Part shown: piece by piece, positions 24,000 through 63,308 of the stretch | How positions within the stretch are numbered: the first letter of the stretch is position 1 | Layout: each line of letters begins with the position of its first letter | The notes under the pieces: model-generated | The model's database searches: none | The model's input: only the letters and a program-made list of their open reading frames with translations | What the model was told of the DNA's origin: nothing | From: Escherichia phage vB_EcoM_Skers | Sequence record: MW748999.1 | Reading direction: 5' to 3' (one strand) | Length of the DNA: 64,000 nt | Made by a program: the position numbers and the translations under genes

Positions 24000-24003
24000 A
24001 TTA

Positions 24004-46419: not shown

Positions 46420-49400
46420 ATGGCAGATTTAAACAGAATCCAGTTTAAACGCACTAGCGCAGCCGGACGTAAACCGGATGCTGGTACGATGAATCCGGGA
46501 GAGTTGGCAATTAACTTAGCAGACCAATATCTGCTTACAAAAAATGATGGTGGGCAAATTGTTAATTTAAGTTGCCCGCCAGTTTATGACAAGAGCGTAG
46601 ATCGGAAGAGCACACCGTCTGAACTCCAGTCACCGGCTATGATCTCGTTGACCGCCGTGGTCTACACGGCCCTGAACACTCTTTCCTACACGACGCTCTT
46701 CCGATCTGCAGATTTAAACAGAATCCAGTTTAAACGCACTAGCGCAGCCGGACGTAAACCGGATGCTGGTACGATGAATCCGGGAGAGTTGGCAATTAAC
46801 TTAGCAGACCAATATCTGCTTACAAAAAATGATGGTGGGCAAATTGTTAATTTAAGTTGCCCGCCAGTTTATGACAAGAGCGTTAATGTAAAAGGTCGTG
46901 TGGTTGCAGATGACCTTATGTGGAGTAATACCGCAAACTATTTCGATGACCCAACCGCACGGAATCTTGATAAATTCGGTGCATTTCGTACTAATGATAT
47001 GGATGGTCATCTAGCATTGGCTTTGCATATTCCTCATCCTAGCGGTATAAACCATGCTCGTGGGTTGGATTTTACTTATGGTTCTAACGTTGTTCCTACT
47101 GTAAAAACCTATGGTTATAACGCTGATGGTGCATTGGCATATTCATATCGCATGTATCACGAAGGTGATAAGCCTAGTCCGTCAGAATTAAATGTATACA
47201 GCAAACAAGAAGTAGATCGGATGTTCCAGAAGACCATCAACTTTGGTGTAGAAACTGGATGGTTTAAAATTGCTACAGCATTTATTCCGCAAAATGATGG
47301 ACGTAGCTTGAAAATTAGATTGGTTGGTGGAAATGGGTGGAACGTAGGCCAAACGGGACAATGTAATATTATTGAACTTGTTATAAGGACTAGCAACGGT
47401 TCCCCTAAAGGAATTAACTTTGTTGCATATCATCATGTTTCTGGTTACGAAAATCAATTTTGTGCCATTAATACAGGTGATGACACTTATGATATCTATG
47501 CATATTACTACGAATTTACTAATATGGTATTGGCTGAATATCAAGCGTCCAGCGATGTTAATTTAACTGTATTTGATCGACCTGAATATGTAGGCGAAAA
47601 ACCTGTAGCTGATCATATCTATGATGCATATACAATACGCTCCTTTAACAGTTTCAGTAACCGTGGAACATTAAATTTTGCTGGCAACCATCAAGGCCAA
47701 TATGACATTGAGCATATGAACGAACAACCGACAAATGCTAAAAAGATGTTGCGTCGGTTTCGAAGCTCTGCCAGCGCGACAATCTGGCATGAAACCGTTG
47801 ATGACCAGAATTATCGTCTTGCCGCTGGAAGTACAGACTCAAGTCAACAATTATTGTTGTCTACTGGGACTGGTTTGCATATTCGTAGATTGACCATCGA
47901 TGGTGGCTTAGGTTCCGGTTCTAATGCTGGTATTGATATTCGTCGAGGACCAAACGAATCAAGCCATTTTAATTTTATGGATTATCGCACTGGTCAAGAT
48001 GTTCGTAATGGTTGGTTTGGTTTTGGTGATTTGACGACCAAAGATTTTATTTGGTGGAACGATAACGGTCAAAACTCGATAAACTTGATCGAAAACGGTG
48101 AATTACATATTACTGGTGGTAAAGGCCAGAAAATTGTAATGAATAGCGAAGTTGCATTATCTGAAAATGCTCGTTTGGCTGTTAAAGGTGGTAATTATGG
48201 TTTGTTGTTCCGTAATGATGGTGTTAGTTTCCATATACTGACTACTAATTTAAAGGATTCTTTTGGAAATTGGAATAATCGTAGACCATTTAGTTATGAT
48301 TTTGCCGAAGGTGGATTGGATCTAGGTGGTACTGAAACTGCTCGTTGTTTGCATCTGGGGATCGATGGTAGTACCCGCATCGAAGATAACTTAGTTTTCC
48401 GATCTGGGTCGCGTCAATCAATGGACTATATTGAAATGATCCATTGGGGTAACAGTAATACAGGACGCAACAACGTTTTGAGTATGAAAGACTCGAAAGG
48501 ATTCTTGGCTGAATTTGAGCGCACCGGAACCAATAGCATTAAAACTAGATTCTTTGGTGAAACATTCACTGATGGTACATTATACCTAAATCAGATGAAT
48601 AATAGCTCTGAACGATTCTCTATCAATAATTGGGGAAATTCAGAAGTTGGTCGCGCGGCAGTCTTAGAAGTTGGTGATTCTAAAGGTTATCACTTTTATG
48701 CTGAACGCAGGACTGATAATAGTTCTTTGTTCTCTGTTGGTGGTGCTTTGTTTGTGCAGGGACCTTCCGGGATTATTATCAAAAACTCTGCTGGTGCTCG
48801 CCATGTTTGGTTTAAAGATGACGGTGATAATGAAAAGGCTGTTATTTGGGCGACCGATGAAGGTATATTACATCTACGAAATAATCATGATGGTGCATTT
48901 AGTCATCACTTCCAGGGCGCAATGATTAAACTGCAAGGGCGTGTTCCTTATGATGCAGCAAAGGGAATTGTTCGTGGTGAAGTTTCTGGTGGTGCATATG
49001 TTGCATGGAGAGACCGCCCTGCTGGTTTGTTAGTTGACTGCCAGCAAAGTGTTGATAGTGCTCATGCTGTTTGGAAAGCGGTTGATTGGGGGCGTCAATA
49101 TATCGCTGCTATGGACGTTCACTGTCCTGGTGATGGTAATAATACCGCAGCCGCTGTTCTTCATGTTCAGGCTGCTGATTATCAATTCCATGCAAGCGGA
49201 GAATTTCATGCCAGTGGCAACGGAAACTTTAACGATGTGTATATTCGTTCTGACCGTCGCCTTAAAGACAATATAGAAGATTATACTGGAAATGCGTTAA
49301 GTTTGATTGGTAAACTGAAAGTGAAAACTTACGATAAAGTTAAATCTCTTAAGGACCGTGAAATTATCGGTCACGAGATCGGCATTATCGCACAGGATTT

Positions 49401-49602
49401 ACAAGAAATATTACCGGAAGCTGTAAAATCTTCAAAAATTGGCAATCTTGATAATCCAGATGAAATTCTGACAATTTCTAACTCTGCCGTGAATGCTCTT
49501 TTAATTAAGGCTATTCAGGAAATGAGTGAAGAAATTAAAGAATTGAAAACACCTCTCTTTACTAAAATTGCTCGCAAAATTAGTAAATATTTTAAATTCT
49601 AA
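46420..49602 (+). CDS. 37: Long tail fibre distal subunit gp37 with C-terminal intramolecular chaperone domain; reading frame includes a 285-bp probable assembly artefact
   Basis: N-terminus MADLNRIQFKRTSAAGRKP...GELAINL matches gp37; C-terminal SDRRLKDNIEDY chaperone-type motif; codons 60-154 derive from adapter plus duplication. Confidence 0.85.
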   Translation: MADLNRIQFKRTSAAGRKPDAGTMNPGELAINLADQYLLTKNDGGQIVNLSCPPVYDKSVDRKSTPSELQSPAMISLTAVVYTALNTLSYTTLFRSADLNRIQFKRTSAAGRKPDAGTMNPGELAINLADQYLLTKNDGGQIVNLSCPPVYDKSVNVKGRVVADDLMWSNTANYFDDPTARNLDKFGAFRTNDMDGHLALALHIPHPSGINHARGLDFTYGSNVVPTVKTYGYNADGALAYSYRMYHEGDKPSPSELNVYSKQEVDRMFQKTINFGVETGWFKIATAFIPQNDGRSLKIRLVGGNGWNVGQTGQCNIIELVIRTSNGSPKGINFVAYHHVSGYENQFCAINTGDDTYDIYAYYYEFTNMVLAEYQASSDVNLTVFDRPEYVGEKPVADHIYDAYTIRSFNSFSNRGTLNFAGNHQGQYDIEHMNEQPTNAKKMLRRFRSSASATIWHETVDDQNYRLAAGSTDSSQQLLLSTGTGLHIRRLTIDGGLGSGSNAGIDIRRGPNESSHFNFMDYRTGQDVRNGWFGFGDLTTKDFIWWNDNGQNSINLIENGELHITGGKGQKIVMNSEVALSENARLAVKGGNYGLLFRNDGVSFHILTTNLKDSFGNWNNRRPFSYDFAEGGLDLGGTETARCLHLGIDGSTRIEDNLVFRSGSRQSMDYIEMIHWGNSNTGRNNVLSMKDSKGFLAEFERTGTNSIKTRFFGETFTDGTLYLNQMNNSSERFSINNWGNSEVGRAAVLEVGDSKGYHFYAERRTDNSSLFSVGGALFVQGPSGIIIKNSAGARHVWFKDDGDNEKAVIWATDEGILHLRNNHDGAFSHHFQGAMIKLQGRVPYDAAKGIVRGEVSGGAYVAWRDRPAGLLVDCQQSVDSAHAVWKAVDWGRQYIAAMDVHCPGDGNNTAAAVLHVQAADYQFHASGEFHASGNGNFNDVYIRSDRRLKDNIEDYTGNALSLIGKLKVKTYDKVKSLKDREIIGHEIGIIAQDLQEILPEAVKSSKIGNLDNPDEILTISNSAVNALLIKAIQEMSEEIKELKTPLFTKIARKISKYFKF
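46423..46598 (+). repeat. Direct repeat copy 1 (176 bp) flanking adapter-derived insert
   Basis: Identical to 46708..46883. Confidence 0.9.
46599..46707. other. Illumina adapter-derived sequence (sequencing/assembly artefact)
   Basis: Contains AGATCGGAAGAGCACAC(C)GTCTGAACTCCAGTCAC and ACACTCTTTCC(-)TACACGACGCTCTTCCGATCT, near-exact TruSeq adapter sequences. Confidence 0.9.
46708..46883 (+). repeat. Direct repeat copy 2 (176 bp)
   Basis: Identical to 46423..46598; offset 285 bp keeps gp37 frame. Confidence 0.9.
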
Positions 49603-49638: not shown

Positions 49639-50418
49639 ATGGCAGTAGTTGGTGTTCCTGGTTGGATTGGAAGTTCAGCCGCAAATGAAACAGGACAACG
49701 TTGGATGAGTCAAGCGGCTGGACAATTAAGATTGGGTGTTCCCTGCTGGATGAGTCAATTTGCAGGTCGCTCGCGAGAAATTATTCATACTGTAGGAGCA
49801 AACCACAATTTTAATGGCCAGTGGTTCCGTGATAGATGCTTTGAAGCTGGCGGTGCACCTATTGTATTCAATATTGTCGGTGATATCGTTTCTTATTCTA
49901 AAGATGTACCACTTTTCTTTATGTATGGAGATACACCTAATGAATATGTGGTTCTTAATATTCATGGCGGAGTTCATATGTGGGGACGAGGTGGTAACGG
50001 TACTGTAAACGGAAACCCGGGCACAAATGGCGGCGATGTAATCCAAAATGATATCGGCGGAAGACTTCGTATTTGGAACTATGGCGTTATTGCATCAGGC
50101 GGCGGCGGTGGTGGTGCAGTGTCATTACAGAATAGCTGGGCGCCAAATGCTACAGCAGGTGGCGGTGGTGGTAGACCATTTGGCATCGGCGGAGGCGGCG
50201 TTAATTGGCCGGGTGGTAATGCTAGTTATGACGCACCGGGCGGAGCCGGTTACACTTCCCAATTCGGCGGAGGCAATGGCGGTGATGCTGGAGGTTGGGG
50301 TGGAGATGGATGGGGTAATCACTTATCTAGATCCGGCGGTGGTGCTCCAGGTAGAGCGGTATTCGGTTCTTCACCATCATGGGGTGCTGTAGGGACAATT
50401 TATGGATCTTACATTTAA
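49639..50418 (+). CDS. 38: Tail fibre adhesin gp38 (T2-type, glycine-rich motifs)
   Basis: N-terminus [28 protein letters not shown] matches T2-type gp38 as recalled; C-terminal half has multiple poly-Gly runs (GGGGGG) separating short variable segments. Confidence 0.85.
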
Positions 50419-50478
50419 CCGTTAAAAAAGAATTAAGGAAAACTCCCACGGAAGGGAACTTACTAAGGAGAAACGGCT

Positions 50479-50718
50479 ATGGTCTATAATATCGTCATTG
50501 GTGCTTTGTCTAATTTCGGAATGAAACTATTATCAAAGTTAATTAGTGAAAAGATGCTCACTAAAATTTTCTTCTACTGCGCTCGTCGTCTTGCGGCTTA
50601 TACCAATACGCCAATTGATGATCGTTTTGTGGAAGAACTTTATAAGGAGTTTAATAAAGATCAGTCAGAAGATAGTAACGAGCAAGATAAACCTAGTGAT
50701 AGTCAAGTACCTAAATAA
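50479..50718 (+). CDS. Hypothetical protein (79 aa), hydrophobic N-terminus
   Basis: ORF between gene 38 and t with SD AAGGAG. Confidence 0.5.
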   Translation: MVYNIVIGALSNFGMKLLSKLISEKMLTKIFFYCARRLAAYTNTPIDDRFVEELYKEFNKDQSEDSNEQDKPSDSQVPK

Positions 50719-50751
50719 GAGTACACTGTCATAGTTATTTTAGGGCATTAT

Positions 50752-51408
50752 ATGCAAGTTTCTGAAAAAGAGAAAGACTTTGCTATCTCAAATGTCCTGC
50801 GCGCTATTTTCACAACTAAAAGCACGGAGTTGCTCGTACTTCGTGTTTTTGCTGCCGTCGTGTTGTCCATATTAGCATTTGTCGTTTATAGTAAAAACGA
50901 GTTATTTGCCTTGTATAAAGAGACTCGTTATGAGACTTATGCTCACGTTCTCCAGGTAGAGAAAGACCGCAATTTTGATAATGCAGCACAGGAGCAGTTA
51001 CAGATAGTTCATGTGTCGGCTGATGCCGATTTTTCTGCTGTTTTTAGTTTTCGTCCGAAAAACCTAAACTATTTTGTTGATTTGGTGGCATATGAAGGAA
51101 AGCTACCACATACAATCGATGAAAAGAATTTAGGCGGATTCCCTATCAATAAAACGAGTGAAGAATATCGTAGGCATCTTTTAGGTAAATCATATTTTAC
51201 CGATAAAGATTTCCAGTATATTCCATCGAGGGAGAAAAAATTAGAGAATATCGATATAGGGTTTATGTATTCTTGTCCTATATTCAATCTCGATAATGTC
51301 TATTCTGGTAGTATTGCCATTGCATGGAAGAATAAACCAGATATTGACATTGAGAATTTAGATACTCTTTGTAATCAATCTGCCAGAATCCTCGGAAGGA
51401 TTAGATAA
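50752..51408 (+). CDS. t: Holin
   Basis: 218 aa, same as T4 T; LEQLQIVHVSADADFSAVFSFRPKNLNYFVDLVAYEGKLP and CNQSARILGR match recalled T4 holin. Confidence 0.92.
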   Translation: MQVSEKEKDFAISNVLRAIFTTKSTELLVLRVFAAVVLSILAFVVYSKNELFALYKETRYETYAHVLQVEKDRNFDNAAQEQLQIVHVSADADFSAVFSFRPKNLNYFVDLVAYEGKLPHTIDEKNLGGFPINKTSEEYRRHLLGKSYFTDKDFQYIPSREKKLENIDIGFMYSCPIFNLDNVYSGSIAIAWKNKPDIDIENLDTLCNQSARILGRIR

Positions 51409-51412
51409 AATT

Positions 51413-51448
51413 AAAGGGGAAGCCTTTCGGCTTCCCCTTCTTTTTTTA
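51413..51448. terminator. Bidirectional intrinsic terminator between convergent genes
   Basis: GGGGAAGCCtttcGGCTTCCCC flanked by A-run and T-run. Confidence 0.75.
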
Positions 51449-51694
51449 TTGACGCATAGACGCGCCTGAATCGCATTTTGACGCTGTGTGATGAAAACAG
51501 GTAGCGTACCAGTCATCGGCTTGTTTGTCTTCGTCAGAAAACGCGTAATTTCGTTGTACGCCGTTTTCTACTTTGACCAGTGCAATAGCTGTTTCTGGAA
51601 GATCAATCAATCGGACAAAATCGCCATCTTCCCATTCTACACGAGCAATATCATAGCCCATCTCAAAGTATACAATCGCTTGTTCTAATTTCAT
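51446..51694 (-). CDS. Hypothetical protein (82 aa)
   Basis: ORF; overlap-coupled to upstream gene. Confidence 0.5.
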   Translation of the reverse strand: MKLEQAIVYFEMGYDIARVEWEDGDFVRLIDLPETAIALVKVENGVQRNYAFSDEDKQADDWYATCFHHTASKCDSGASMRQ

Positions 51695-52023
51695 TCTGGA
51701 AACTTCCCGTAAATGTTCTCTGCCAACATACGCGCATCGCTAATGATATCTTTCATGCTATGACCGTAGTGTTCAGCCATTGAGTTGACACAATCAACAA
51801 AGAAATTATAACGGCGACGGTTTAAGATTTCTTCTCTGTTATAGTTTTCATATTTGACGGTCGAGTGTGCTTTCTCGATTGCCTTGATCGCTATATTGAC
51901 TTCATTGATAATGGTTTTAGCATTGTATGCGCCACGACGGATCAGGATATTTGTCAATTCTCTTGCAATATCTTGCAATTCTTCATATTCATGTTCAAAC
52001 ATAATCAACCTCTCAAAATACAA
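51691..52023 (-). CDS. Hypothetical protein (110 aa)
   Basis: ORF with SD GAGGTTGA. Confidence 0.5.
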   Translation of the reverse strand: MYFERLIMFEHEYEELQDIARELTNILIRRGAYNAKTIINEVNIAIKAIEKAHSTVKYENYNREEILNRRRYNFFVDCVNSMAEHYGHSMKDIISDARMLAENIYGKFPE

Positions 52024-52026
52024 TCC

Positions 52027-52359
52027 TTACAGATGAAAACCTGTTACAATTACCGCATCGATCGTACCGCTAGGAATAAACGGTTCACCCTCTTTTATTT
52101 CAACTTTGAATTGATGCCATTTCGCTAATACTTCTTCCGGTACACCCAGCGATTCGGCGTCTGCTTTAGTTTCATCCATAATCCAACTAGGCTGCATGAG
52201 AGCATAGTTTACATAGTCCATTTCTGGGGTCATGTCATCAATGTTAATATATTTGCAGTTGACGCGTTTCAGAATTTCAAATTCTTTATTATCAACCTGT
52301 ACCATGTATAATTCAGTAGTTTCTGGAATCAGTTCCCACACAATCAGTACATTTTTCAT
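52027..52359 (-). CDS. Hypothetical protein (110 aa)
   Basis: ORF with SD-like upstream. Confidence 0.5.
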   Translation of the reverse strand: MKNVLIVWELIPETTELYMVQVDNKEFEILKRVNCKYINIDDMTPEMDYVNYALMQPSWIMDETKADAESLGVPEEVLAKWHQFKVEIKEGEPFIPSGTIDAVIVTGFHL

Positions 52360-52367
52360 AGTTCACC

Positions 52368-52736
52368 TCACTTAACAAAGATTTTCTTTAATGCTTTCAG
52401 GATCGTTGCTTCCGGTGCTTCTTCCGGTGGAGGAAGCAATTCTACCACTTCCTCTTCCAACTCGATATAGTCTACCAGATATTCTACATAGAATGCAAGT
52501 GCTTCCATGAAATTAGATGCTACATCCGATTCACCACAAGCGCCTACATGCATTGTATAAACATCACTGCGATCAAGTTTGTGGATGCTTCCCAGATAGT
52601 TCCGGTTATACCAGACTTCCCACACTTTCAGCTTTCCGGTTTTGGTTGATGTTTTATAATCGGTTTCGTAATGATGCAATTGACGTTGCAAATCATTGAT
52701 AATAACACATTTTTCGTAATTGTTTTGAATTTCCAT
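52368..52736 (-). CDS. Hypothetical protein (122 aa)
   Basis: ORF with SD GAGGA. Confidence 0.5.
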   Translation of the reverse strand: MEIQNNYEKCVIINDLQRQLHHYETDYKTSTKTGKLKVWEVWYNRNYLGSIHKLDRSDVYTMHVGACGESDVASNFMEALAFYVEYLVDYIELEEEVVELLPPPEEAPEATILKALKKIFVK

Positions 52737-52746
52737 GATGTAATCC

Positions 52747-52938
52747 TCACTTATCGTTAAGAAGTTCTAAAACTTTCTGTCGTACTTTGTCAATATTAGT
52801 TGATTCAAAAACTGTACGGTATCCCCAGCTTTGACCGTATGAGCGGTTGCAATCTCCATATCCCCATTGTTCAACCTGATAGTATTCAAGGAATGGATGC
52901 TGCCGAACTATGATACCATCGCGATTAAAAATTACCAT
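52747..52938 (-). CDS. Hypothetical protein (63 aa)
   Basis: ORF with SD GAGGA; truncated -35-like CGTCAACA motif immediately upstream. Confidence 0.5.
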   Translation of the reverse strand: MVIFNRDGIIVRQHPFLEYYQVEQWGYGDCNRSYGQSWGYRTVFESTNIDKVRQKVLELLNDK

Positions 52939-52961
52939 AATATAATCCTCACGTCAACAAC

Positions 52962-53249
52962 TTATTTTCGGTTGTGGTCACGATATGTTTTAAAATATCC
53001 CTCGTACCACGGTAAAACATCTGGATTTTTACCACTATACAGACCTTTAACCATCATGTCAATAAGACCGTCCGGTGTTTGATAATTACCAGCTTTTATA
53101 AGCTCTCTGATTAAAATTTCCCTGTATATGTCTTTCGGATCTTCGTAATCAACTTGTATCGTTGTTGTGGTCTCATTCAATTTGGTTTCTGGAGTATCTT
53201 GCATCGCCTTCCACCAATCTTTTGTGATCTTCATGTTATTGAATTGCAT
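52962..53249 (-). CDS. Hypothetical protein (95 aa)
   Basis: ORF with SD GAGG. Confidence 0.5.
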   Translation of the reverse strand: MQFNNMKITKDWWKAMQDTPETKLNETTTTIQVDYEDPKDIYREILIRELIKAGNYQTPDGLIDMMVKGLYSGKNPDVLPWYEGYFKTYRDHNRK

Positions 53250-53260
53250 AATTTAACCTC

Positions 53261-54019
53261 TTACTTGCAAACGTATTGATCTACATCAATTGCGCCACCG
53301 AATGTAGGATGACGTTTTTCAAATCGAATAGTTCCGTCGTTTGGTTCGAAAACGGAGTATTCATATAGATCTTTCTTACCAACATTCTTATAAAACCCGC
53401 CTTTAGTCATAACGGTTTCTTGTACGTTTGCTTTGTGTACGTTGTATTCATCAATGTATACAAAATCAACCATCTTCCCATTTTTAATGGTTACTTTAAG
53501 ATCCCCTGGCTGGTTTCCATATTTTGCATACAGTGGAGCCTCTTTAATTTTGGTGGAAATTCCATCTTTCATACTCCACTCATAACGAACGGTGCATTGA
53601 TAGGTAAAAGTTTCGTCCTTCGGTTCTTCCACCACTTTTTCTTCCTGTTTCGGTTGTTCTTCGTCAACCTTTGCAGAAGTCTCTGAATCGCTTTCTGACG
53701 CGGTTTCTTCTTTAGGTAATACATTCATCAAGTTTTGGATTTGAGCGTTGTATACAGCCTCCAGTGGCTGAATCTGCCCGATATTGATCATTGTATCACG
53801 AACAGTTTTATTCCAGTTACGTTGTTCTTGTTTCAGAGATGGATCAATCTTAACAGCCTTAACATATACTTCATGAAGTTTCGAATCCAGTGCGGAAATT
53901 GACTCATTAGCACAAATAAACTTCTCTGATTTGGTAGTGGCTTTAGCGCAATCGAAGGACGCAGCATTAGCACCGAATGCAGTAGCAGAAAGAACGATAG
54001 CAGCGATAATGTTTTTCAT
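53261..54019 (-). CDS. Secreted protein with DUF1311 (LprI-like) N-terminal domain
   Basis: Signal peptide MKNIIAAIVLSATAFGANA; pattern C...T..E..IC...LD..L..Y...QR.W...RD. Confidence 0.55.
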   Translation of the reverse strand: MKNIIAAIVLSATAFGANAASFDCAKATTKSEKFICANESISALDSKLHEVYVKAVKIDPSLKQEQRNWNKTVRDTMINIGQIQPLEAVYNAQIQNLMNVLPKEETASESDSETSAKVDEEQPKQEEKVVEEPKDETFTYQCTVRYEWSMKDGISTKIKEAPLYAKYGNQPGDLKVTIKNGKMVDFVYIDEYNVHKANVQETVMTKGGFYKNVGKKDLYEYSVFEPNDGTIRFEKRHPTFGGAIDVDQYVCK

Positions 54020-54053
54020 AATATATTCCTCAGTGTTTTGTCTTGATGGGAGT

Positions 54054-54082
54054 ATATTACTACTCCCTTAATCCGGTGTCAA
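54054..54082 (-). promoter_or_regulatory. PeSL-type early promoter cassette
   Basis: TTGACA; palindrome GGGAGTA/TACTCCC; -10 TAATAT. Confidence 0.65.
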
Positions 54083-54089
54083 CTACTTT

Positions 54090-54245
54090 TTAAATTTCTT
54101 CTACAGTAAAGTCTTCAATGTTGTTGTGCTCGGAGAACGTTGCCAAACCAGCATCCCATGCATCATCCTCAGAGAAGAATACACCGTAACGTTCATATCC
54201 CTTAGCGCCTTCAAATTTAACCATTAATTTGTGAGTATGTTTCAT
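54090..54245 (-). CDS. Hypothetical small protein (51 aa)
   Basis: Start trimmed to ATG 54245 downstream of PeSL promoter. Confidence 0.45.
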   Translation of the reverse strand: MKHTHKLMVKFEGAKGYERYGVFFSEDDAWDAGLATFSEHNNIEDFTVEEI

Positions 54246-54276
54246 TTTGATTCTCCTTCGTTGTCTTGATGAGTTT

Positions 54277-54305
54277 AGTATAGGGGATCGCCGATCCCCT
54301 GTCAA
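54277..54305 (-). promoter_or_regulatory. PeSL-type early promoter cassette
   Basis: TTGACA-N17-TATACT; spacer palindrome GGGGATCggcGATCCCC. Confidence 0.75.
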
Positions 54306-54319
54306 CCAGTTTTTAGAAA

Positions 54320-54580
54320 TTATTTTCGCCATTCACCGGAAACAATGAAGTTTGTAAAGTGATTGTGGTCCGTGATAATGTCATTAAGTACCATATGCGG
54401 ATATGCTTTAGTGTAATCACGTTTACGATCAGTCATCCAACCAACGAAAGTCGGTGCAAAGTACGGCACACCGTCAGATGATGCCATATTAAACCCTTTA
54501 TCAGCCATAAATGCAGCCGCCCTAAGATTTTTAATTGAAGTAGTGCGACTAATTTCAAAAACTTTATCAGTAAAATTCAT
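54320..54580 (-). CDS. Hypothetical protein (86 aa)
   Basis: ORF after PeSL promoter. Confidence 0.5.
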   Translation of the reverse strand: MNFTDKVFEISRTTSIKNLRAAAFMADKGFNMASSDGVPYFAPTFVGWMTDRKRDYTKAYPHMVLNDIITDHNHFTNFIVSGEWRK

Positions 54581-54792
54581 TTTAAGCCCCCCGCTCGTGC
54601 ATTAATACGCATTTTCTGAATAGCCATGATCTGGCTTACTGCTTCTTCTTTACGTTCTTGCGTGATAACGTGACCAGATTCCGCAAACTCTCCAGCAACT
54701 TCTTCTACGATCTCGCGAACTTGAGAACGTCCAAAGATGCGGTTTCCTTCGTAGCTCATAAACTCTGTTACTACTTGCTCGATAGATTTCAT
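54577..54792 (-). CDS. Hypothetical protein (71 aa)
   Basis: ORF with SD AGGAG after PeSL. Confidence 0.55.
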   Translation of the reverse strand: MKSIEQVVTEFMSYEGNRIFGRSQVREIVEEVAGEFAESGHVITQERKEEAVSQIMAIQKMRINARAGGLK

Positions 54793-54821
54793 GTGATTCT
54801 CCTTTTGTTTGGTATGGGAGT

Positions 54822-54850
54822 ATGTTACTACTCCCTTATCTTTACGTCAA
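54822..54850 (-). promoter_or_regulatory. PeSL-type early promoter cassette
   Basis: TTGACG -35; palindrome GGGAGTA/TACTCCC. Confidence 0.6.
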
Positions 54851-54857
54851 CTAGTTT

Positions 54858-55100
54858 TTAGAAATTTTTCGCTTCTTCTTCGGTCATCATCACCGCGCAT
54901 TCGTGCATAACTTTGAAAACCGGGTCAATCATATCGAATGCTTCGCGAGACAATTTACGAGAAGCGATTTTGATTGCTTCAACGTCTTCTACTACAGGAA
55001 CAAAAACAGTTTTCAGTTCATCGAGAACGGCAGCTTCTTTTTCATTCAGGAAGATTCCAGCGTCGTACAATGCAACTTCGATAACATTAACTTTAACCAT
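54858..55100 (-). CDS. Hypothetical protein (80 aa)
   Basis: Start trimmed to ATG 55100 (SD GGAGGAAATAAAA) after PeSL. Confidence 0.5.
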   Translation of the reverse strand: MVKVNVIEVALYDAGIFLNEKEAAVLDELKTVFVPVVEDVEAIKIASRKLSREAFDMIDPVFKVMHECAVMMTEEEAKNF

Positions 55101-55134
55101 TTTTATTTCCTCCAGTTCGTTTCGGTATGGGAGT

Positions 55135-55163
55135 ATAATACTACCGATGACCTTTGGCGTCAA
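55135..55163 (-). promoter_or_regulatory. PeSL-type early promoter (degenerate)
   Basis: TTGACG-N17-TATTAT. Confidence 0.5.
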
Positions 55164-55365
55164 CTAGTTTTTTGTTATTTTCGTGAAATTTTTTCGTCGC
55201 CTCATGTGCTTTTCGCTGGGCTTCTAGTTGTGCTTTCTGGCGTGCTGCCTCTTGTGAAGCCATAACGGAAGCATTTGCAGCAGTTACAGCCGCGACCATC
55301 GCTGCGGTATTAGCATTTACCGTACATGCACTAGCCAGCAAAGCAATCGCAATCATTTTCTTCAT
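55141..55365 (-). CDS. Small secreted protein (74 aa)
   Basis: N-terminal signal peptide MKKMIAIALLASACTVNA; Ala/Lys-rich mature region. Coordinates overlap the predicted promoter, so one of the two calls may be wrong. Confidence 0.45.
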   Translation of the reverse strand: MKKMIAIALLASACTVNANTAAMVAAVTAANASVMASQEAARQKAQLEAQRKAHEATKKFHENNKKLVDAKGHR

Positions 55366-55532
55366 AGTTTCCCCTTTAGGTTATCTTCGACCTTCACCCA
55401 TTCCGCGTATTCTTGCGCGGCTACTTTCGGATTTAGTCCGTCTTCGTACATTGCTTCAAGTAATTCTTCGTCGGTGGGCTTATACCCTAGATAAGCCTCC
55501 ACCTGATTTTTCCAAATTTTATACCAGTTCAT
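55362..55532 (-). CDS. Hypothetical small protein (56 aa)
   Basis: Start trimmed to ATG 55532. Confidence 0.4.
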   Translation of the reverse strand: MNWYKIWKNQVEAYLGYKPTDEELLEAMYEDGLNPKVAAQEYAEWVKVEDNLKGKL

Positions 55533-55536
55533 ATTA

Positions 55537-55809
55537 TCACCAATCAAGAGCGCGTGTCTCTGCGTCTTCCCATGCTTGATCCATAACAGCCTTGAAAACA
55601 TATTCTAGAGTATCATCTTTAGAGAATCCGAAGACTTTAGACGGAATATCTTCAATTGCTACTCCCGCAACTTCTGCATTACGCGCTTGGCAATAATGCA
55701 ACTCTAAGTTATCGAGATAGCGACCGCCTAATTTCTCCATATCATCCCAACATTTCCAGTAACCTACTTTATCTGCAATTGCCAACACTTTGCTGTTTTC
55801 GTTGTTCAT
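55537..55809 (-). CDS. Hypothetical protein (90 aa)
   Basis: Start trimmed to ATG 55809 (SD GGAGAATCAAAG) after PeSL. Confidence 0.5.
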   Translation of the reverse strand: MNNENSKVLAIADKVGYWKCWDDMEKLGGRYLDNLELHYCQARNAEVAGVAIEDIPSKVFGFSKDDTLEYVFKAVMDQAWEDAETRALDW

Positions 55810-55840
55810 CTTTGATTCTCCTTTTGTTTGGTATGGGTGT

Positions 55841-55869
55841 ATTATGCAATGCTGGATTATGGAAGTCAA
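55841..55869 (-). promoter_or_regulatory. PeSL-type early promoter (degenerate)
   Basis: TTGACT-N17-CATAAT. Confidence 0.55.
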
Positions 55870-55878
55870 ACAACTTTT

Positions 55879-55912
55879 CAAATAAAAAAAAGCCGACCAC
55901 AAGGATCGGCTT
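55879..55912 (-). terminator. Intrinsic terminator
   Basis: AAGCCGATCCttgtGGTCGGCTT followed by TTTTTTTATTT on minus strand; same hairpin as 44669..44699 in opposite orientation. Confidence 0.7.
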
Positions 55913-55921
55913 AATAGTCAG

Positions 55922-56293
55922 TTACTTACTAAATTTCTTTTTGGCTTCGTCTACTGCATGAGATGCTAGTACCGCTGCCGCATGTGCACTTTTATCTGTG
56001 TTGCAGAGAACACCCAGATAAACATCACGCCAAAGTTTAATCATCTCGTAGATCATATCAATATCATTTTCTTGTTTGTTGGCGATGCTATTCATCGTTA
56101 TCTGGTAAGGCAACGGCTTGATCTGTACTGGTTCCGCCATCGGGCTAATCGGTTTCGGATCAGTCATAATAGGTGCTGTTGTTGGTGGTGTTTTCCATAC
56201 ACCATTATTCCACGGTTTAATCGTTGTATCGTAAAGTTTATAAGGATTTTTGTCTGGATTAACCATCCAGGCATGATGAAGTACCCAAACCAT
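55922..56293 (-). CDS. Hypothetical protein (123 aa)
   Basis: ORF followed by terminator. Confidence 0.5.
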   Translation of the reverse strand: MVWVLHHAWMVNPDKNPYKLYDTTIKPWNNGVWKTPPTTAPIMTDPKPISPMAEPVQIKPLPYQITMNSIANKQENDIDMIYEMIKLWRDVYLGVLCNTDKSAHAAAVLASHAVDEAKKKFSK

Positions 56294-56310
56294 TTGAAGT
56301 AATGCGTCGT

Positions 56311-56520
56311 TCAGTCATACTTTCCCTCCAAAAATTCTTTCATCAAATAGTCTATCGTTGCTCTGTGTTCTGGTGTGTTTGTTATCTCTGCTAACTTGTT
56401 CAGAGATTCAATAGTGATCCGGTTGGCTTCTTCCATAGTCTCAACGACCATCGGTACAATCTTTTTATTGTTGTACACGAAAGCCACATAACCGCCTTCT
56501 GGATATTCTTTCATAATCAA
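56311..56520 (-). CDS. Hypothetical protein (69 aa)
   Basis: ORF overlap-coupled to gene 52. Confidence 0.5.
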   Translation of the reverse strand: MIMKEYPEGGYVAFVYNNKKIVPMVVETMEEANRITIESLNKLAEITNTPEHRATIDYLMKEFLEGKYD

Positions 56521-57878
56521 CCCTTCTTAAGTTCTTTAAGATCTTTCTTATATTCCTTCATTGCGGTCGTCTTTGTCCAATACTCATATTCACTATGATG
56601 TTTATCGGCATCTTTGACCAGTCGATCATACTCTTCTTGAGTAACGCTATACAATGGCATAGAAACGAGCTTATCGGCATATGGGCGAAGTTTTTCATGT
56701 TCATTGATGGATTGCATTACCTCGGCCTTTTTCTTGCCCTGTAGCTCGATTTCGCCCTTAATTACGCGGTCGATAAATTCGGCTTTAGCCATTGCATAAT
56801 TGTATGCTTCCAGCGTTTCCGCTTGCATCAATTCAATGCGTTTATCGACATAGCCTAATCGGATTTCGACGAATCGACGGATCAGATCGCTCGCTTTCTC
56901 GAATACTTCTACTAAACCACGTTCGTTAACTACTACGATATTCTGGGCTACTAACTGCGTTAGTTTAAAATCCTTCATGATTTGCTCATGTCGAGCGGAT
57001 TCATCTTCGCTTTTGAAATAATCGCGTTTCAGTGTTACCTCAAATCTGAATCCGTCCTTAGAGCAACGGTCATTATACGATACAATCAGATCTTTTTCTT
57101 CCAGTGCATCCAGTACCGCTACATATTCTTCACGGTCGAACTTATAAGGAACTTCTGATATTGTCAGTTTAGTCTTGCCGTTTAGTTCATATGTACCCTC
57201 AAGAATCACACCATCGCGATCATCTCGCGGGATAACTTTACCCGTGAATTTCGGGAATTGAACACTAGGTTCTTTATCCAGTTTTCCGGCAAGTGCTAGC
57301 TCTGTGCATTCAATAAGGCTTTCCAATGAATGCGGTAAAATGTCAGTTTTATACCCTGTAGCAATACCACTAATACCATTAGCCAATACCATTGGCACAA
57401 CTGGCAAGTAGAACGCTGGCGGGATGTGTTCCAGATCTTCGTGCTTAGGTGCGCAATTCATATCTTTATAGATTTTAAAGAAGTTTTCATGCACACGAGC
57501 AAAGATATAACGTGCCGCACCTGCTTTCTGGACTAAACGCGATCCGAAGTTACCTTGACCGTCAAGCAGTGGAGTATTATTGCTCCATGTATTCGCCATA
57601 AGTGATCCGGCTTCTACGGCATTAGTTTCCCCGTGGTGATAACCCAACTCAGCAACACCAGATCCAATATCTGCCATCTTACGGAATTTCTTACGGTCGC
57701 CTTTACTCTTTTGAAGTGCGCACTCCATAACAAAGCGTTGTACTGGTTTAAGCCCATCTACCAATTGAGGAATCCCGCGTTCCTCGGCAGAATAGATCGC
57801 ATATTCCTTAGCTTCATTATGTACAATGCTTTCAAGGCTGCGGTAAGTAACTGATTTATTCATCTTCACCTCATACAC
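56517..57878 (-). CDS. 52: DNA topoisomerase II medium subunit (GyrA-like cleavage domain)
   Basis: 453 aa (T4 gp52 is 442 aa); GIPQLVDGLKPVQRFV and active-site AARYIFARV. Confidence 0.88.
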   Translation of the reverse strand: MYEVKMNKSVTYRSLESIVHNEAKEYAIYSAEERGIPQLVDGLKPVQRFVMECALQKSKGDRKKFRKMADIGSGVAELGYHHGETNAVEAGSLMANTWSNNTPLLDGQGNFGSRLVQKAGAARYIFARVHENFFKIYKDMNCAPKHEDLEHIPPAFYLPVVPMVLANGISGIATGYKTDILPHSLESLIECTELALAGKLDKEPSVQFPKFTGKVIPRDDRDGVILEGTYELNGKTKLTISEVPYKFDREEYVAVLDALEEKDLIVSYNDRCSKDGFRFEVTLKRDYFKSEDESARHEQIMKDFKLTQLVAQNIVVVNERGLVEVFEKASDLIRRFVEIRLGYVDKRIELMQAETLEAYNYAMAKAEFIDRVIKGEIELQGKKKAEVMQSINEHEKLRPYADKLVSMPLYSVTQEEYDRLVKDADKHHSEYEYWTKTTAMKEYKKDLKELKKG

Positions 57879-58233
57879 GCTTACAAATCACATTCTTTAC
57901 TTTATCAGATTTATCCGCCCAATCCAATAGCCATTTTAACGGAAGGATTGAAACAATAAACGGGGCAGCAATCAAAGCAAACATGATACACCGGATAATC
58001 AGAAAAACGCAAGTAACAAAACTAGCGATAGTGATCCCGACAAAACAAAATACCATAGAAAACAGAGTAATGATATAGAAAGGCCAGAATACCCACTCCC
58101 GCATCTTAACGCCTTTGTATTCCCTGAATTGCTTAAAATCTACAAACAATTCTCGGATAGACGCGTACAGGACCGAAAAATCATCTTTCATTGCTCTGAA
58201 TGAGCAATCTTCTATTTTAGAATGATCTAGCAT
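57871..58233 (-). CDS. Membrane protein (120 aa)
   Basis: Two predicted TM helices (IITLFSMVFCFVGITIASFV, ALIAAPFIVSILPL). Confidence 0.5.
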   Translation of the reverse strand: MLDHSKIEDCSFRAMKDDFSVLYASIRELFVDFKQFREYKGVKMREWVFWPFYIITLFSMVFCFVGITIASFVTCVFLIIRCIMFALIAAPFIVSILPLKWLLDWADKSDKVKNVICKRV

Positions 58234-58235
58234 TA

Positions 58236-58529
58236 TTAACCGCCTTTAACCATTGATACCGGAATTGTTTTCTGATTTGTGTATAAGTGGCCTACTTCAA
58301 ATTTTTCCTGAATCACCACAACGTTACAATATCCACTGTCTTTAAGTTTTCTGATAATGTCTCGCTTTTGTTCGTCGGTGATAGGATTGACTGTTCTCAC
58401 CAATTCATCGCAAATAATAGCACCATCTTTACAATTACCAGTAACTTTCATGCTACGACCGTGAACAACAACCACATCACCGTAAATCACATTTTTGTCT
58501 TCGTATTTGGTAATAATCGTGACCGTCAT
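58236..58529 (-). CDS. Hypothetical protein (97 aa)
   Basis: ORF with SD. Confidence 0.5.
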   Translation of the reverse strand: MTVTIITKYEDKNVIYGDVVVVHGRSMKVTGNCKDGAIICDELVRTVNPITDEQKRDIIRKLKDSGYCNVVVIQEKFEVGHLYTNQKTIPVSMVKGG

Positions 58530-58544
58530 AATGTATTCCCTCTA

Positions 58545-58568
58545 AGAAAGGCCGCGCAAAGCGGCCTA
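58545..58568 (-). terminator. Hairpin terminator
   Basis: AGGCCGCtttgcGCGGCCT followed by TTCTT on minus strand. Confidence 0.45.
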
Positions 58569-58574
58569 TGTTGA

Positions 58575-58892
58575 TTATTGTTCTACAGTATAACCGTTGT
58601 TTTCAAGCCATGCAATAACAATCTTTTCACCAATTTCATCGAGCATTTCATCAGCGCCATATTCTTTAATGAAAGTCGATGGATCATTATTGCTTACTAC
58701 GTGCTGGATCACAACATGTTCAGGGATTGCATCTAGCAGTTCGCTATGATCATACTCATTAACGATATCTTCAACGGTAACATTATTAGCCAGATCCACA
58801 TCGTCTAAAGTCACCGTAACGCGTCGAGATGGATATGCTACCTGTTCTACTTCAACATGTGCACTTTCGCAAGTAACCTTCATATCAATCAT
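58575..58892 (-). CDS. Hypothetical protein (105 aa)
   Basis: ORF with SD GAGGAA. Confidence 0.5.
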   Translation of the reverse strand: MIDMKVTCESAHVEVEQVAYPSRRVTVTLDDVDLANNVTVEDIVNEYDHSELLDAIPEHVVIQHVVSNNDPSTFIKEYGADEMLDEIGEKIVIAWLENNGYTVEQ

Positions 58893-58906
58893 AATTAATT
58901 CCTCTA

Positions 58907-59908
58907 TTAGTAATGGCTAAAACCTTCGGTTACATCTTCAACCACATAGTAACGATGACAGCGCATTTTGGCATTCGCATAATCTTTCGGGATACTTACA
59001 ACGTGACGCGGATCAACTTTGCATTTAATGATTCGGCCTCGCCCACCGCCATAGTGCGGAATATAGTGTTTCGCTGCAACGTGGAGGCCATTAGAGCAAG
59101 TACGATCATCATCTGGGTCCACGTCTTTACGCTTCATTTTAACCGTTCGCCCTGGGCTATTATCAAACGTATGCGTAAAGAAATCTTTATAATCAACATC
59201 AACACGTTTCCATGCATAGAAACAACCGTCTTCCCCGATCTCAATGTCGTTGTGCTCTAAGAAGTCAAACAGACGATCTACGGCCTTACGGCTAGGGTTT
59301 TTCTTGCACTTCTCAAAGAAGTTCAGATAGTGCGTATATGGCTTATTCTCTTTAATAGACTCCACAACTCGACGAGTCAGATTATTATCAAGAACAATAT
59401 TATGATAATACACAATACCATTTTCGATACGGAAAGCGCCGTGATAATATACTTCAACCGCTTTCTTAATGTCAATCAGCGTAATTGCTTTAATGAAATC
59501 ATTCTGCTTAACTGCTTCCAGTGCTTCATTAAAGTTAACATGTGATGGATCAGCAGTATAAACAATGTCACCACATGTAATAGTAATAAACTTAGTTGAG
59601 GCTATGGCTACGATTTTTGAGGAAGTAGTCACGGGCTTTTTTGCGCGTTCACCGCCTTTTCCTTTACTGGTTTTACGGCGTGCTTTACGTTTTTCTAGTG
59701 CCTTGCGACCTTCCGCTACTGCGTCTTTCTGAATCAGTAATACACGGGAGGCAGTACGACGAGATACCCCAAATGCTGCCGCAAGTGCTTCGCGGGTAGT
59801 AAACTTACCTTCGCCCCACTGTTTAGCCAGTTTGATTTGTTTTTCAGAATCCAGGCATTGAACGTTACGGTCAGAGACGGTGATTTTTGCTTTAGTCATA
59901 GTATTCAT
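58907..59908 (-). CDS. rIIB: rIIB protein
   Basis: C-terminal RLFDFLEHNDIEIGEDGCFYAWK ... FDNSPGRTVKM ... CSNGLHV ... HVVSIPKDYANAKMRC ... VVEDVTE matches recalled T4 rIIB. Confidence 0.85.
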   Translation of the reverse strand: MNTMTKAKITVSDRNVQCLDSEKQIKLAKQWGEGKFTTREALAAAFGVSRRTASRVLLIQKDAVAEGRKALEKRKARRKTSKGKGGERAKKPVTTSSKIVAIASTKFITITCGDIVYTADPSHVNFNEALEAVKQNDFIKAITLIDIKKAVEVYYHGAFRIENGIVYYHNIVLDNNLTRRVVESIKENKPYTHYLNFFEKCKKNPSRKAVDRLFDFLEHNDIEIGEDGCFYAWKRVDVDYKDFFTHTFDNSPGRTVKMKRKDVDPDDDRTCSNGLHVAAKHYIPHYGGGRGRIIKCKVDPRHVVSIPKDYANAKMRCHRYYVVEDVTEGFSHY

Positions 59909-59962
59909 TCCTCTATTAGTTGGGCGACTATCGCCGCCCGATTCACATCATTATACCAGAAT

Positions 59963-60093
59963 TATTTTGCTTCGACAACCTTGCGGATTGTGCGGTCTGA
60001 TACATTATAGATTCGTGCCAGTTCGCCTTTAGTCAAGCCGCGAGCGTATTGTTTACGGATGGTTTCTTTCTGGATAGCGGTCAGTTTAGTCAT
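59963..60093 (-). CDS. Small HTH protein (43 aa), not in ORF track
   Basis: MTKLTAIQKETIRKQYARGLTKGELARIYNVSDRTIRKV; resembles rIIB N-terminal HTH. Confidence 0.35.
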
Positions 60094-60104
60094 AATATCA
60101 CCTC

Positions 60105-62213: not shown

Positions 62214-62227
62214 AATATAATCCTCAC

Positions 62228-62485
62228 TTAATTAAAATCTTCTTTGTCCATCTCTGCGTAAATTACATCCCACGCCCATAAATCAATAAACGCATTATAT
62301 GTCACGGTGCAATCGTTGTCAATCACTTCTTTCGCATATTTCTTGATGTTTTCGTAGGAAACTTGCGGATCAATTTTGTGTTTACGAAGATGCGCATATT
62401 CATACCTCAAACACTCCATAAACAGGTCCATCGATTTCTTTTCTCGATGACACTTGGCGATCATAAAATCAAAACTTCGACTCAT
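62228..62485 (-). CDS. Hypothetical protein (85 aa)
   Basis: ORF with SD GGAG. Confidence 0.5.
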   Translation of the reverse strand: MSRSFDFMIAKCHREKKSMDLFMECLRYEYAHLRKHKIDPQVSYENIKKYAKEVIDNDCTVTYNAFIDLWAWDVIYAEMDKEDFN

Positions 62486-62495
62486 TTTCTACTCC

Positions 62496-62690
62496 TTATA
62501 CATTTTCAATCACCCATTGCAGATGGGCTTCTGCGTCAACCAGTTCAGCGCGGCTTTTCTCTAAGCACTTGCTGTATTCTTTACGTTCCCACTCGGCAAT
62601 TTCGTTTTTCAGGACTTCTTCATAGTAAGCAATTACGCCTTTCAGATCGGAAACTTTACGGCTTGCCAGTTCGATGTAATGGTTACGCAT
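62496..62690 (-). CDS. Hypothetical protein (64 aa)
   Basis: ORF with SD AGGAG. Confidence 0.5.
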   Translation of the reverse strand: MRNHYIELASRKVSDLKGVIAYYEEVLKNEIAEWERKEYSKCLEKSRAELVDAEAHLQWVIENV

Positions 62691-62877
62691 TTTGATTCTC
62701 CTTTGTTACTAGATAACGAATTTGGTCTTGCATTGCAATCAGTTCCCAGCGTGCTACTTTCATCATAGAAACCGACTCTTTGAACATAATATTAGCTTTT
62801 TCCTTATCCCCTGTCAAGTAGATTTCTGCAATTTTTTCACAAAATTTTTGAGTTTCTTCATTCTTAAACGGTTTCAT
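62683..62877 (-). CDS. Hypothetical protein (64 aa)
   Basis: Start trimmed to ATG 62877 (track used upstream TTG); PeSL upstream. Confidence 0.5.
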   Translation of the reverse strand: MKPFKNEETQKFCEKIAEIYLTGDKEKANIMFKESVSMMKVARWELIAMQDQIRYLVTKENQNA

Positions 62878-62907
62878 ATAAGTCAACCTTTTGTTTTCGA
62901 TGGGGAT

Positions 62908-62936
62908 ATTATGATATATCCCCGATCCGGTGTCAA
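62908..62936 (-). promoter_or_regulatory. PeSL-type early promoter cassette
   Basis: TTGACA-N17-CATAAT; palindrome GGGGATAT/ATATCCCC. Confidence 0.7.
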
Positions 62937-62943
62937 CAGATTT

Positions 62944-63243
62944 TTAATCTTTTTTCAGTGCATCCATTACTCGCTCTGCGATCAGTTCTCTTAAGCACTG
63001 ATAACCATGATATTTGATGGCAATGTCACGCAGATCATTAACCAGTTCCCGTACTTCATGGTCTTTCAGATCGTCTCTGTATTTCGATTTAATCGTATCT
63101 TTAGGTGGATTGCGGATAACCTGAAAACCTTGTTCTGCAATCACTGCGGCTTCTCGCTGGCGTTCATGCTGTACTGTATTTTTGATCAGGTCTGCTTCCA
63201 TGAACTTTGCCACACTCATCATCATGTTATTCTTTTTGCTCAT
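62944..63243 (-). CDS. Hypothetical protein (about 99 aa)
   Basis: Start trimmed to ATG 63243 (SD GAGGA) after promoter. Confidence 0.5.
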   Translation of the reverse strand: MSKKNNMMMSVAKFMEADLIKNTVQHERQREAAVIAEQGFQVIRNPPKDTIKSKYRDDLKDHEVRELVNDLRDIAIKYHGYQCLRELIAERVMDALKKD

Positions 63244-63277
63244 CGTTAAATCCTCATAAAAGAAAAGGGAGACTCCC

Positions 63278-63305: not shown

Positions 63306-63308
63306 GTG

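Follow-up and report, generated by a model that had tools for sequence, protein, structure and literature searches.

The window that we have analysed, i.e. a stretch of 64,000 nucleotides from Escherichia phage vB_EcoM_Skers (sequence record MW748999.1), contains no detectable homologue of asiA or motA, the two T4 genes of sigma appropriation and middle-mode transcription. This concerns the interval between the holin gene t and gene 52 (hereafter, the t-52 interval), where both genes are located in T4, as well as the rest of the window and positions 1-100,000 of the related phage RB49. Homologues of Alc, gp42, beta-glucosyltransferase (beta-gt), Ndd and DenB have not been detected there either, and the cis element of T4 middle promoters, the MotA box, is no more frequent than expected by chance; taken together, these absences make it most likely, with a probability of about 0.9, that the phage follows a transcription programme of two classes, early and late, which would operate with neither sigma appropriation nor Alc. 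We infer the lack of any middle class from the sequence.

Searches for AsiA, MotA, MotA boxes and Alc

The window is part of the genome of a Krischvirus coliphage, i.e. a phage of the RB49 type ("pseudo-T-even"), as is seen from its nucleotide identity and its synteny with RB49-type genomes. A megablast search of positions 50700-58300 against 50,697 phage records matches 58 records, all of them from the genus Krischvirus (RB49-like coliphages or Shigella phages), and in 51 of the 58 at least 80% of the query is covered at 94-97% identity. The window corresponds approximately to positions 103.9-164 kb of RB49 (AY343333) followed by positions 1-3.9 kb, with its last 3.9 kb (60105-64000) being 98% identical to RB49 1-3896. 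The left landmark of the t-52 interval is the holin gene t (50752-51408, plus strand, 218 aa; Pfam Phage_holin_T, PF11031, E 4.9e-61), and the right landmark is gene 52 (56517-57878, minus strand, with a probable ATG at 57863), which encodes the medium subunit of topoisomerase II (Pfam DNA_topoisoIV, E 1.4e-69).

In T4 (AF158101), the genes follow the order t, asiA, asiA.1, arn, arn.1-4, motA, motA.1, 52, 52.1, ac, stp, ndd (...), denB, rIIB, while the alc region reads pseT, pseT.1-3, alc, rnlA; the original prediction, made from the letters of the window, had placed asiA and motA between t and 52, and alc between pseT and rnlA, for T4, in agreement with this record.

The AsiA family is represented by PF09010 and phrog_1166, and the MotA family by PF09114, PF09158 and phrog_1345. 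None of these is matched by the 16 open reading frames (ORFs) of the t-52 interval or by four neighbouring ORFs in Pfam (E up to 5) and PHROGs (E up to 0.01); as positive controls, T4 AsiA matches phrog_1166 ("anti-sigma factor") with E 1e-41 and T4 MotA matches phrog_1345 ("MotA-like activator") with E 2e-98. In phmmer searches of the six-frame translations (fragments of 20 aa or longer) of the window and RB49 1-100,000, the best E is 2.7 for T4 AsiA and 0.11 for T4 MotA; the latter match (8.9 bits; E 0.02 in a tiny database) is to ORF12 of the interval, an Ala/Lys-rich, signal-peptide-like ORF, and has been rejected as a chance match.

A profile from 10 close relatives of AsiA has been searched exhaustively against 1.84 billion representative proteins, which has provided 36 family representatives. 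The best match of a 40-sequence AsiA hidden Markov model (HMM) made from this collection, in the window and RB49 1-100,000, has an E of 0.069 and is located inside gp26, and no match is given by the t-52 interval of either of two further Krischvirus phages. The comparison of 168 small ORFs (from the window, and hypothetical ORFs of RB49) with the AsiA alignment by hhalign gives probabilities of at most 10%, whereas eight held-out divergent AsiA members score 99.0-99.7%. For an additional 148 small ORFs, from the window and from RB49, the Pfam matches listed (the best 25 of the 28-29 families per scan, down to E 0.026-0.036) comprise neither AsiA nor MotA nor Ndd, and the RB49 record has no asiA, motA, alc, denB, ndd, 42, a-gt or b-gt annotated. 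The claim that no asiA- or motA-like gene lies between t and 52 is thus upheld by Pfam, PHROGs, phmmer, HMM and hhalign alike; the wider search that had been proposed along with it, for AsiA, MotA, Alc, DenB, Ndd and gp42 across the genome, has found no homologue in the window and RB49 1-100 kb.

The core of the T4 middle promoter, TGCTTnA followed after 11-13 nt by TAnnnT, has two matches in the window, where 3.07 would be expected, both of them on the non-coding strand, and two in RB49 1-100 kb. The same motif is found 12 times in T4 1-34 kb against 2.23 expected, a count that is reached in none of 100 shuffles, with several of the T4 boxes lying in the gaps that immediately precede 45, 46 and segA-uvsX; the 9.4-kb t-rIIB region of T4, with 0 matches, was uninformative as a control, and T4 1-34 kb has been used instead. 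As MotA boxes occur at chance level, the cis element of the middle mode is missing along with the proteins.

The genes pseT (22309-23208; Pfam PNKP), pseT.2, pseT.3 and rnlA (24004-25173; Pfam T4 RNA ligase 1) are contiguous on the minus strand (22309-25173), with overlapping stops and starts, and the ORFs between pseT and rnlA are equivalent to RB49 pseT.2 and pseT.3 in size and position; since this interval is filled without gaps, it has no room for alc, the absence of which from this place had also been predicted. The best phmmer match of T4 Alc (167 aa) in the window and RB49 1-100 kb has an E of 1.1, and nothing below E 0.003 is found there with T4 Alc, gp42, beta-gt, Arn, Ndd or DenB. 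The match of gp42 at E 0.003 is td, a full-length thymidylate synthase (Thymidylat_synt, E 1e-83). The td ORF itself (31262-32497, minus strand, 411 aa) aligns over residues 2-411 to the Pfam profile in its full length of 266 positions and carries about 140 aa of inserted sequence relative to typical ThyA; RB49 td is of the same size. The alpha-gt gene, for which no sequence search has been made, is not annotated in RB49.

These results agree with what has been published on RB49: its DNA is cut by HpaII and NheI, i.e. it contains neither hydroxymethylcytosine (hmC) nor glucosyl-hmC, and it lacks the hydroxymethylase and the beta-glucosyltransferase (Yaung et al. 2014, PMC4041780); according to a 2025 survey, the hmC genes and endonuclease IV are missing in Krischvirus (PMC12115623). 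The absence of Alc suggests that transcription of cytosine DNA is not shut off in these phages, as the original prediction had it. A separate observation is concerned with a 184-aa early ORF in the hyperplastic region between alt and gene 30 (11448-12002, minus strand), which contains a GmrSD_N (DUF262) domain (E 6e-20). Glucosyl-hmC DNA is the target that is cut by GmrSD-type enzymes, and we speculate that a fragment of such an enzyme, in a phage with cytosine DNA, might act against co-infecting T-even phages.

Promoter cassettes and genes of the t-52 interval

Between t and 52, we have found 16 minus-strand ORFs of 51-252 aa within 5,108 nt (after refinement of the start sites), at a coding density of 90% and with a recognisable Shine-Dalgarno sequence for most of them; the densely packed small ORFs of the original prediction are present, although their number is 16 instead of about 18. 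The interval is most likely one of the hyperplastic early regions of Krischvirus, with its 16 small leftward genes being arranged in few transcription units that would be expressed early.

A generic sigma-70 scan of positions 50400-60200 shows no enrichment (29 matches against 28.6 expected); its best matches lie on the coding strand, and every one of the five intergenic gaps of at least 40 nt contains such a match. A repeated cassette has been identified that consists of AAAA(c/g)T(a/g/t)GTTGAC(A/G), a 17-nt spacer, the -10 hexamer, ACTCCCAT..., in most copies an AAGGAG-type ribosome-binding site, and the ATG; its inverted repeat is either GGGGATCG/CGATCCCC or GGGAGTA/TACTCCC. The pattern AAAANTNGTTGAC-N22-26-ANNCNCAT is present in 13 copies, each on the minus (coding) strand of the window, against 0 expected: four copies, with a fifth variant at 55885-55841, are located in the t-52 interval, and the remaining ones in the alt-gene 30 and denA-nrdB intervals. 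The description of the ORFs as "promoter-driven" is therefore supported by the cassette counts, at the level of sequence, and not by the generic scan.

The cassettes of the interval, all on the minus strand, are P5 (54046-54090; TTGACA-17-TAATAT, stem GGGAGTA/TACTCCC), upstream of ORF7; P4 (54269-54313; TTGACA-17-TATACT, spacer stem GGGGATCG/CGATCCCC), upstream of ORF8; P3 (54814-54858; TTGACG-17-TAACAT, stem GGGAGTA/TACTCCC), upstream of ORF10; and P2 (55127-55171; TTGACG-17-TATTAT), upstream of ORF11 and overlapping the 3' end of ORF12. Upstream of ORF14 (55841-55912), an intrinsic terminator (55912-55890) is followed by promoter P1 (TTGACT-17-CATAAT, 55869-55841). In the annotation of phage GEC-3S, promoters are placed at four equivalent sites (P5, P3, P2 and P1), with a terminator at the P1 site too. 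At the other end of the interval, a bidirectional intrinsic terminator (51413-51440, both strands), with a 12-bp G+C-rich stem and a T run on both strands, separates t from the leftward cluster, and it is also annotated in Makalu_003 and GEC-3S. The cassettes are the published promoter-early stem-loops (PeSLs), and they would act as promoters in the isolate; the PeSLs of RB49 and phi1 have shown promoter and terminator activity in reporters, and recombination between PeSLs shuffles ORFans (PMC2839356, PMC4122927).

The ORFs of the interval are numbered from t. PHROG families, all of unknown function, are matched by 14 of the 16; the other two, ORF11 and ORF12, match no PHROG family, but their DNA is conserved in many Krischvirus genomes. 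A function or a T4 counterpart is suggested for ORF1, ORF4 and ORF7, with no function having been inferred for the other 13.

ORF1 (51446-51694, 82 aa), which adjoins t at the position of asiA in T4, is Tad2-like (DUF2829) and possibly has an anti-Thoeris role: it matches phrog_1048 with E 3e-19 and PF11195 with E 2.4e-6 (28.4 bits against a gathering cut-off of 25), across profile positions 1-71 of 73. Its AlphaFold2 (AF2) model, built from a shallow alignment with two close homologues, is of low confidence (predicted local distance difference test, pLDDT, 60) and has no significant fold match in the PDB. The predicted helical ORF2 (51691-52002, 103 aa; phrog_9457) is restricted to Krischvirus (six clusters, all at least 73% identical, among 5.8 billion proteins); its AF2 model (six close homologues) consists of four helices at a low-confidence pLDDT of 67, with no PDB match below E 3 and with AsiA absent from the matches listed for this low-confidence model. 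The Foldseek matches of both models have been discarded as meaningless, because of the shallow alignments and the low confidence of the models. Searches of PDB sequences with ORF1, ORF2, ORF4 and ORF7 give nothing significant.

ORF4 (52368-52736, 122 aa), which is identical to RB49ORF257c, is a homologue of T4 arn.4 at the profile level: phrog_1594 is matched both by ORF4 (E 8.8e-26, profile positions 1-111) and by T4 Arn.4 (E 1.1e-26, positions 43-111), while a direct BLASTP comparison of the two gives no match. By these profile matches, ORF4 is the sole gene shared with the asiA-motA interval of T4, and the retention of an arn.4 homologue supports the correspondence of the two t-52 intervals; the claim that T4-like genes are missing here stands for asiA and motA, and fails for this gene. 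ORF7 (53261-54019, 252 aa; phrog_14799, E 2e-155) has an N-terminus that resembles, by eye, a signal peptide and precedes an LprI (DUF1311) domain (PF07007, E 1.1e-5, residues 24-76), and is probably secreted.

The remaining ORFs near t, all of unknown function, are ORF3 (52027-52359, 110 aa; phrog_4658, E 7.5e-40), ORF5 (52747-52938, 63 aa; phrog_6957, E 2.8e-42) and ORF6 (52962-53249, 95 aa; phrog_15915, E 7.9e-49). Further on, ORF8 (54090-54245, 51 aa) starts at an ATG at 54245 that has a Shine-Dalgarno sequence, with phrog_19699 covering residues 30-80 of the long ORF, and is followed by ORF9 (54320-54580, 86 aa; phrog_19692), ORF10 (54577-54792, 71 aa; phrog_14966, E 2.4e-48), ORF11 (54858-55100, 80 aa) and ORF12 (55141-55365, 74 aa), the signal-peptide-like N-terminus of the latter having been recognised by eye. 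ORF13 (55362-55532, 56 aa) is matched by phrog_8655 across residues 22-72 of the long ORF, ORF14 (55537-55809, 90 aa; phrog_7287) starts at an ATG at 55809 with a Shine-Dalgarno sequence, and ORF15 (55922-56293, 123 aa; phrog_15644, E 1.5e-81) and ORF16 (56311-56514, 67 aa; phrog_15105, E 3.4e-45) complete the series.

Where the relatives differ in gene content, they do so in that part of the interval which is rich in cassettes. The variable ORF9 is found in only about 10 of the 58 related genomes, and most relatives match positions 54300-55540 only from query position 291, i.e. from position 54590 of the window. This variation, together with that of the ORFs of the size of ORF3 in RB49, is the behaviour expected of a hyperplastic region. 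On the other side of gene 52, the 52-rIIB interval (57871-58892, minus strand) contains three ORFs of 120 aa (membrane-protein-like), 97 aa and 105 aa, none of which is related to 52.1, ac, stp, ndd or denB, the occupants of that position in T4.

The probable two-class programme and its alternatives

According to the two-class programme, each unit of the t-52 interval would be headed by a PeSL, with its A-rich upstream element, near-consensus sigma-70 -35 and -10 hexamers and G+C-rich stem-loop, and all the transcripts of the interval would end at the bidirectional terminator that is shared with t. The sigma-70 holoenzyme of the host, probably modified by the phage ADP-ribosyltransferases Alt and ModB, would transcribe the pre-replicative genes, all of them from early promoters of the PeSL type or of other types. 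The late genes would be transcribed from TATAAATA promoters by means of gp55/gp33 and the gp45 clamp; in the window, genes 51, 34 and 36 are each immediately preceded by such a promoter. The DNA would contain ordinary cytosine and would not be subject to discrimination of the Alc type; the lack of sigma appropriation and of Alc is consistent with unmodified cytosine DNA. The original prediction of a pseudo-T-even phage without a middle mode, which relies on early and late promoters only, is supported by the Krischvirus identity of the window, the absence of AsiA, MotA and Alc, the chance-level MotA boxes and the RB49 literature.

With regard to ADP-ribosylation, two adjacent minus-strand genes of the window encode a 274-aa paralogue that resembles the C-terminal part of Alt (7896-8720) and Alt itself (8798-10849, 683 aa); both match ADPrib_exo_Tox (E 3e-9 and 4e-16).

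Some points weigh against the two-class programme. The absence of AsiA and MotA has been established by sequence and profile searches, with which a non-homologous or an extremely diverged functional replacement would be compatible, and the fold-level look for an AsiA-like protein comprised only the low-confidence models of ORF1 and ORF2. RB49 1-100,000 stands in for the approximately 100 kb of the isolate's genome that are located outside the window; RB49 100,001-164,018 is mostly equivalent to the window, and its part at about 100,000-103,900 is covered by annotation only (hoc, inh, uvsW and uvsY).

The alternative that survives best, improbable as we consider it, is that a functional analogue of AsiA or MotA is encoded by one of the small early ORFs specific to Krischvirus, or at another place in the genome, and that a middle-like class with a different motif exists. 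Its more specific form, a distinct middle class that is run by a non-homologous small early protein acting on sigma-70 or on the stem-loops of the PeSLs, we would rate marginally lower; if true, it would be an independent solution to the problem that T4 solves by sigma appropriation. The 14 interval ORFs with no inferred function (all but ORF1 and ORF7) leave candidates for such a regulator, and there is a precedent in KVP40 and Aeh1, which have AsiA but no recognisable MotA and for which Hinton has proposed unrecognised analogues (PMC2988021). Another candidate might be the 43-aa helix-turn-helix peptide that is encoded between rIIA and rIIB, with its weak match to sigma-70 region 4.

Against such an analogue, hhalign recovers every held-out divergent AsiA member and none of the small ORFs; the sole ORF of the interval that has the size of MotA, ORF7, looks secreted; and the ORF2 model, for what its pLDDT allows, does not suggest an AsiA-like fold. 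Sigma-70-type early promoters are annotated in RB49 before replication genes such as 43, 45, 46 and 32, and two published searches of RB49, by Nolan et al. 2006 and earlier by Desplats et al. 2002, have found neither a motA orthologue nor a middle-promoter consensus (PMC1524935).

The 43-aa ORF itself (59962-60093, minus strand; RB49ORF272c) is essentially a bare helix-turn-helix, matching CENP-B_N (E 7e-6) and Sigma70_r4 (E 2e-4) in Pfam, and in PHROGs its own family and, weakly, families of DNA-binding, Mor-type and RIIB proteins; the corresponding site of T4 is devoid of an ORF.

It is very improbable that asiA and motA have been relocated to the part of the isolate's genome outside the window. 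The shuffling of small genes is known from the hyperplastic regions of T4-like genomes (PMC2839356), but RB49 1-100,000 is negative by HMM, hhalign, Pfam and phmmer, no such gene is annotated in the RB49 record, and the MotA-box motif is enriched neither in the window nor in RB49. In the 30 relatives listed with a t-52 match, the annotated products of the interval are holin, topoisomerase or gyrase, hypothetical, membrane and unnamed phage proteins, with an anti-sigma or MotA-type gene being named in none of the 30.

Least probable of all is an assembly artefact, i.e. a deletion or a mis-join in the t-52 interval: a clear artefact does occur elsewhere in the window (46423-46884, with Illumina adapters and a duplicated start of gene 37), but 51 Krischvirus genomes that were sequenced independently have the interval in collinear form, at 94-97% identity, and it is longer than that of T4 (5.1 kb against 3.0 kb).

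The artefact in gene 37 consists of an Illumina TruSeq adapter at 46599-46708, which reads AGATCGGAAGAGCACAC(C)GTCTGAACTCCAGTCAC, an index, and then ...ACACTCTTTCC-TACACGACGCTCTTCCGATCT. On either side of the adapter, about 176 bp from the 5' end of gene 37 are present as direct repeats (46423-46884, inside the ORF at 46420-49602). A search for the adapter with three mismatches gave no match, owing to a 1-nt insertion, and the adapter was seen by direct reading. It looks like contig ends that have been joined via adapter read-through, which results in a false 1060-aa gp37 with a duplicated N-terminus.

Three further features of the window are the following. Directly after gene 37, the window contains a full gp38 adhesin gene (49639-50418, plus strand; Pfam GP38, E 2e-80, and Gp38_N), whereas gene 38 of RB49 is annotated far off (45367-46143, minus strand) and gene 37 of RB49 is followed only by ORF251w/dc5; the host-range module, thus, differs from that of the type phage. 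A 198-aa ORF (36127-36723, minus strand) is located between gene 32 (35092-36066) and gene 59 (36710-37387), which are adjacent in RB49, and the HNH_3/AP2 homing-endonuclease matches of the pooled Pfam scan probably stem from it. Lastly, a 405-aa ORF of unknown function (33793-35010, minus strand; RB49ORF239c) contains, in three stretches, CapR homology domains (E 3e-29), together with a treble-clef zinc finger (DUF4379).

Comparison with known phages

The finding is correct, but it is already known for RB49 from Nolan 2006, Hinton 2010, Arbiol 2010 and Yaung 2014, and it adds nothing new on the control of transcription in T4-type phages: Nolan et al. 2006 list AsiA only for RB69, 44RR, Aeh1 and KVP40 (PMC1524935), and RB49 is in neither of the lists of T4-type phages given by Hinton 2010, i.e. 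those with both genes and those with asiA alone (PMC2988021). The window behaves as a standard RB49-type genome, with cytosine DNA, no sigma appropriation, no Alc, and early cassettes that are bounded by PeSLs. Such phages are of practical relevance, as they serve in therapy cocktails and transduce plasmids (PMC12115623), and the t-52 interval is a reasonable place for a hunt for anti-defence genes, e.g. the Tad2-like ORF.

KVP40 and Aeh1 share with Krischvirus the lack of a recognisable MotA or middle-promoter consensus (PMC1524935, PMC2988021), but they have kept an AsiA orthologue, whereas Krischvirus is without both proteins.

The t-52 interval of T4 is shorter (10 ORFs in 3.0 kb, against 16 ORFs in 5.1 kb in the window), and the window lacks AsiA, MotA, Arn and every other gene of the T4 interval besides the arn.4 family; in place of MotA boxes, its promoters are the repeated PeSL cassettes. 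The two intervals are alike in their flanks, with holin t on one side and 52 on the opposite strand, in their small leftward early genes, in the arn.4 family, and in that host-takeover or anti-defence functions are included.

The likeness is closest to the t-52 region of RB49, Phi1, JSE and GEC-3S, with which the window shares 94-98% nucleotide identity, the flanking genes, the ORF families (RB49ORF253c-266c), the PeSL cassettes and the terminator next to t. Compared with RB49, the window has one 110-aa ORF3, where two ORFs of that size (255c and 256c) and a 41-aa ORF are annotated in RB49; ORF11 and ORF12 have no counterpart of their size in the annotation of AY343333, although their DNA is present in many relatives.

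Regarding the cassettes, we have found nothing substantive that separates them from the PeSLs of T4-type phages (Arbiol et al. 2010; Comeau et al. 2014; PMC2839356), save that the copies of the window are known from their sequence, unlike the copies that have been tested in reporters. The A-rich stretch, TTGAC(A/G), the 17-nt spacer and the -10 hexamer are the same, as are the GGGG...CCCC or GGGAGTA...TACTCCC inverted repeats, and in both cases the elements are intergenic and are located in hyperplastic regions, beside ORFans (PMC2839356).

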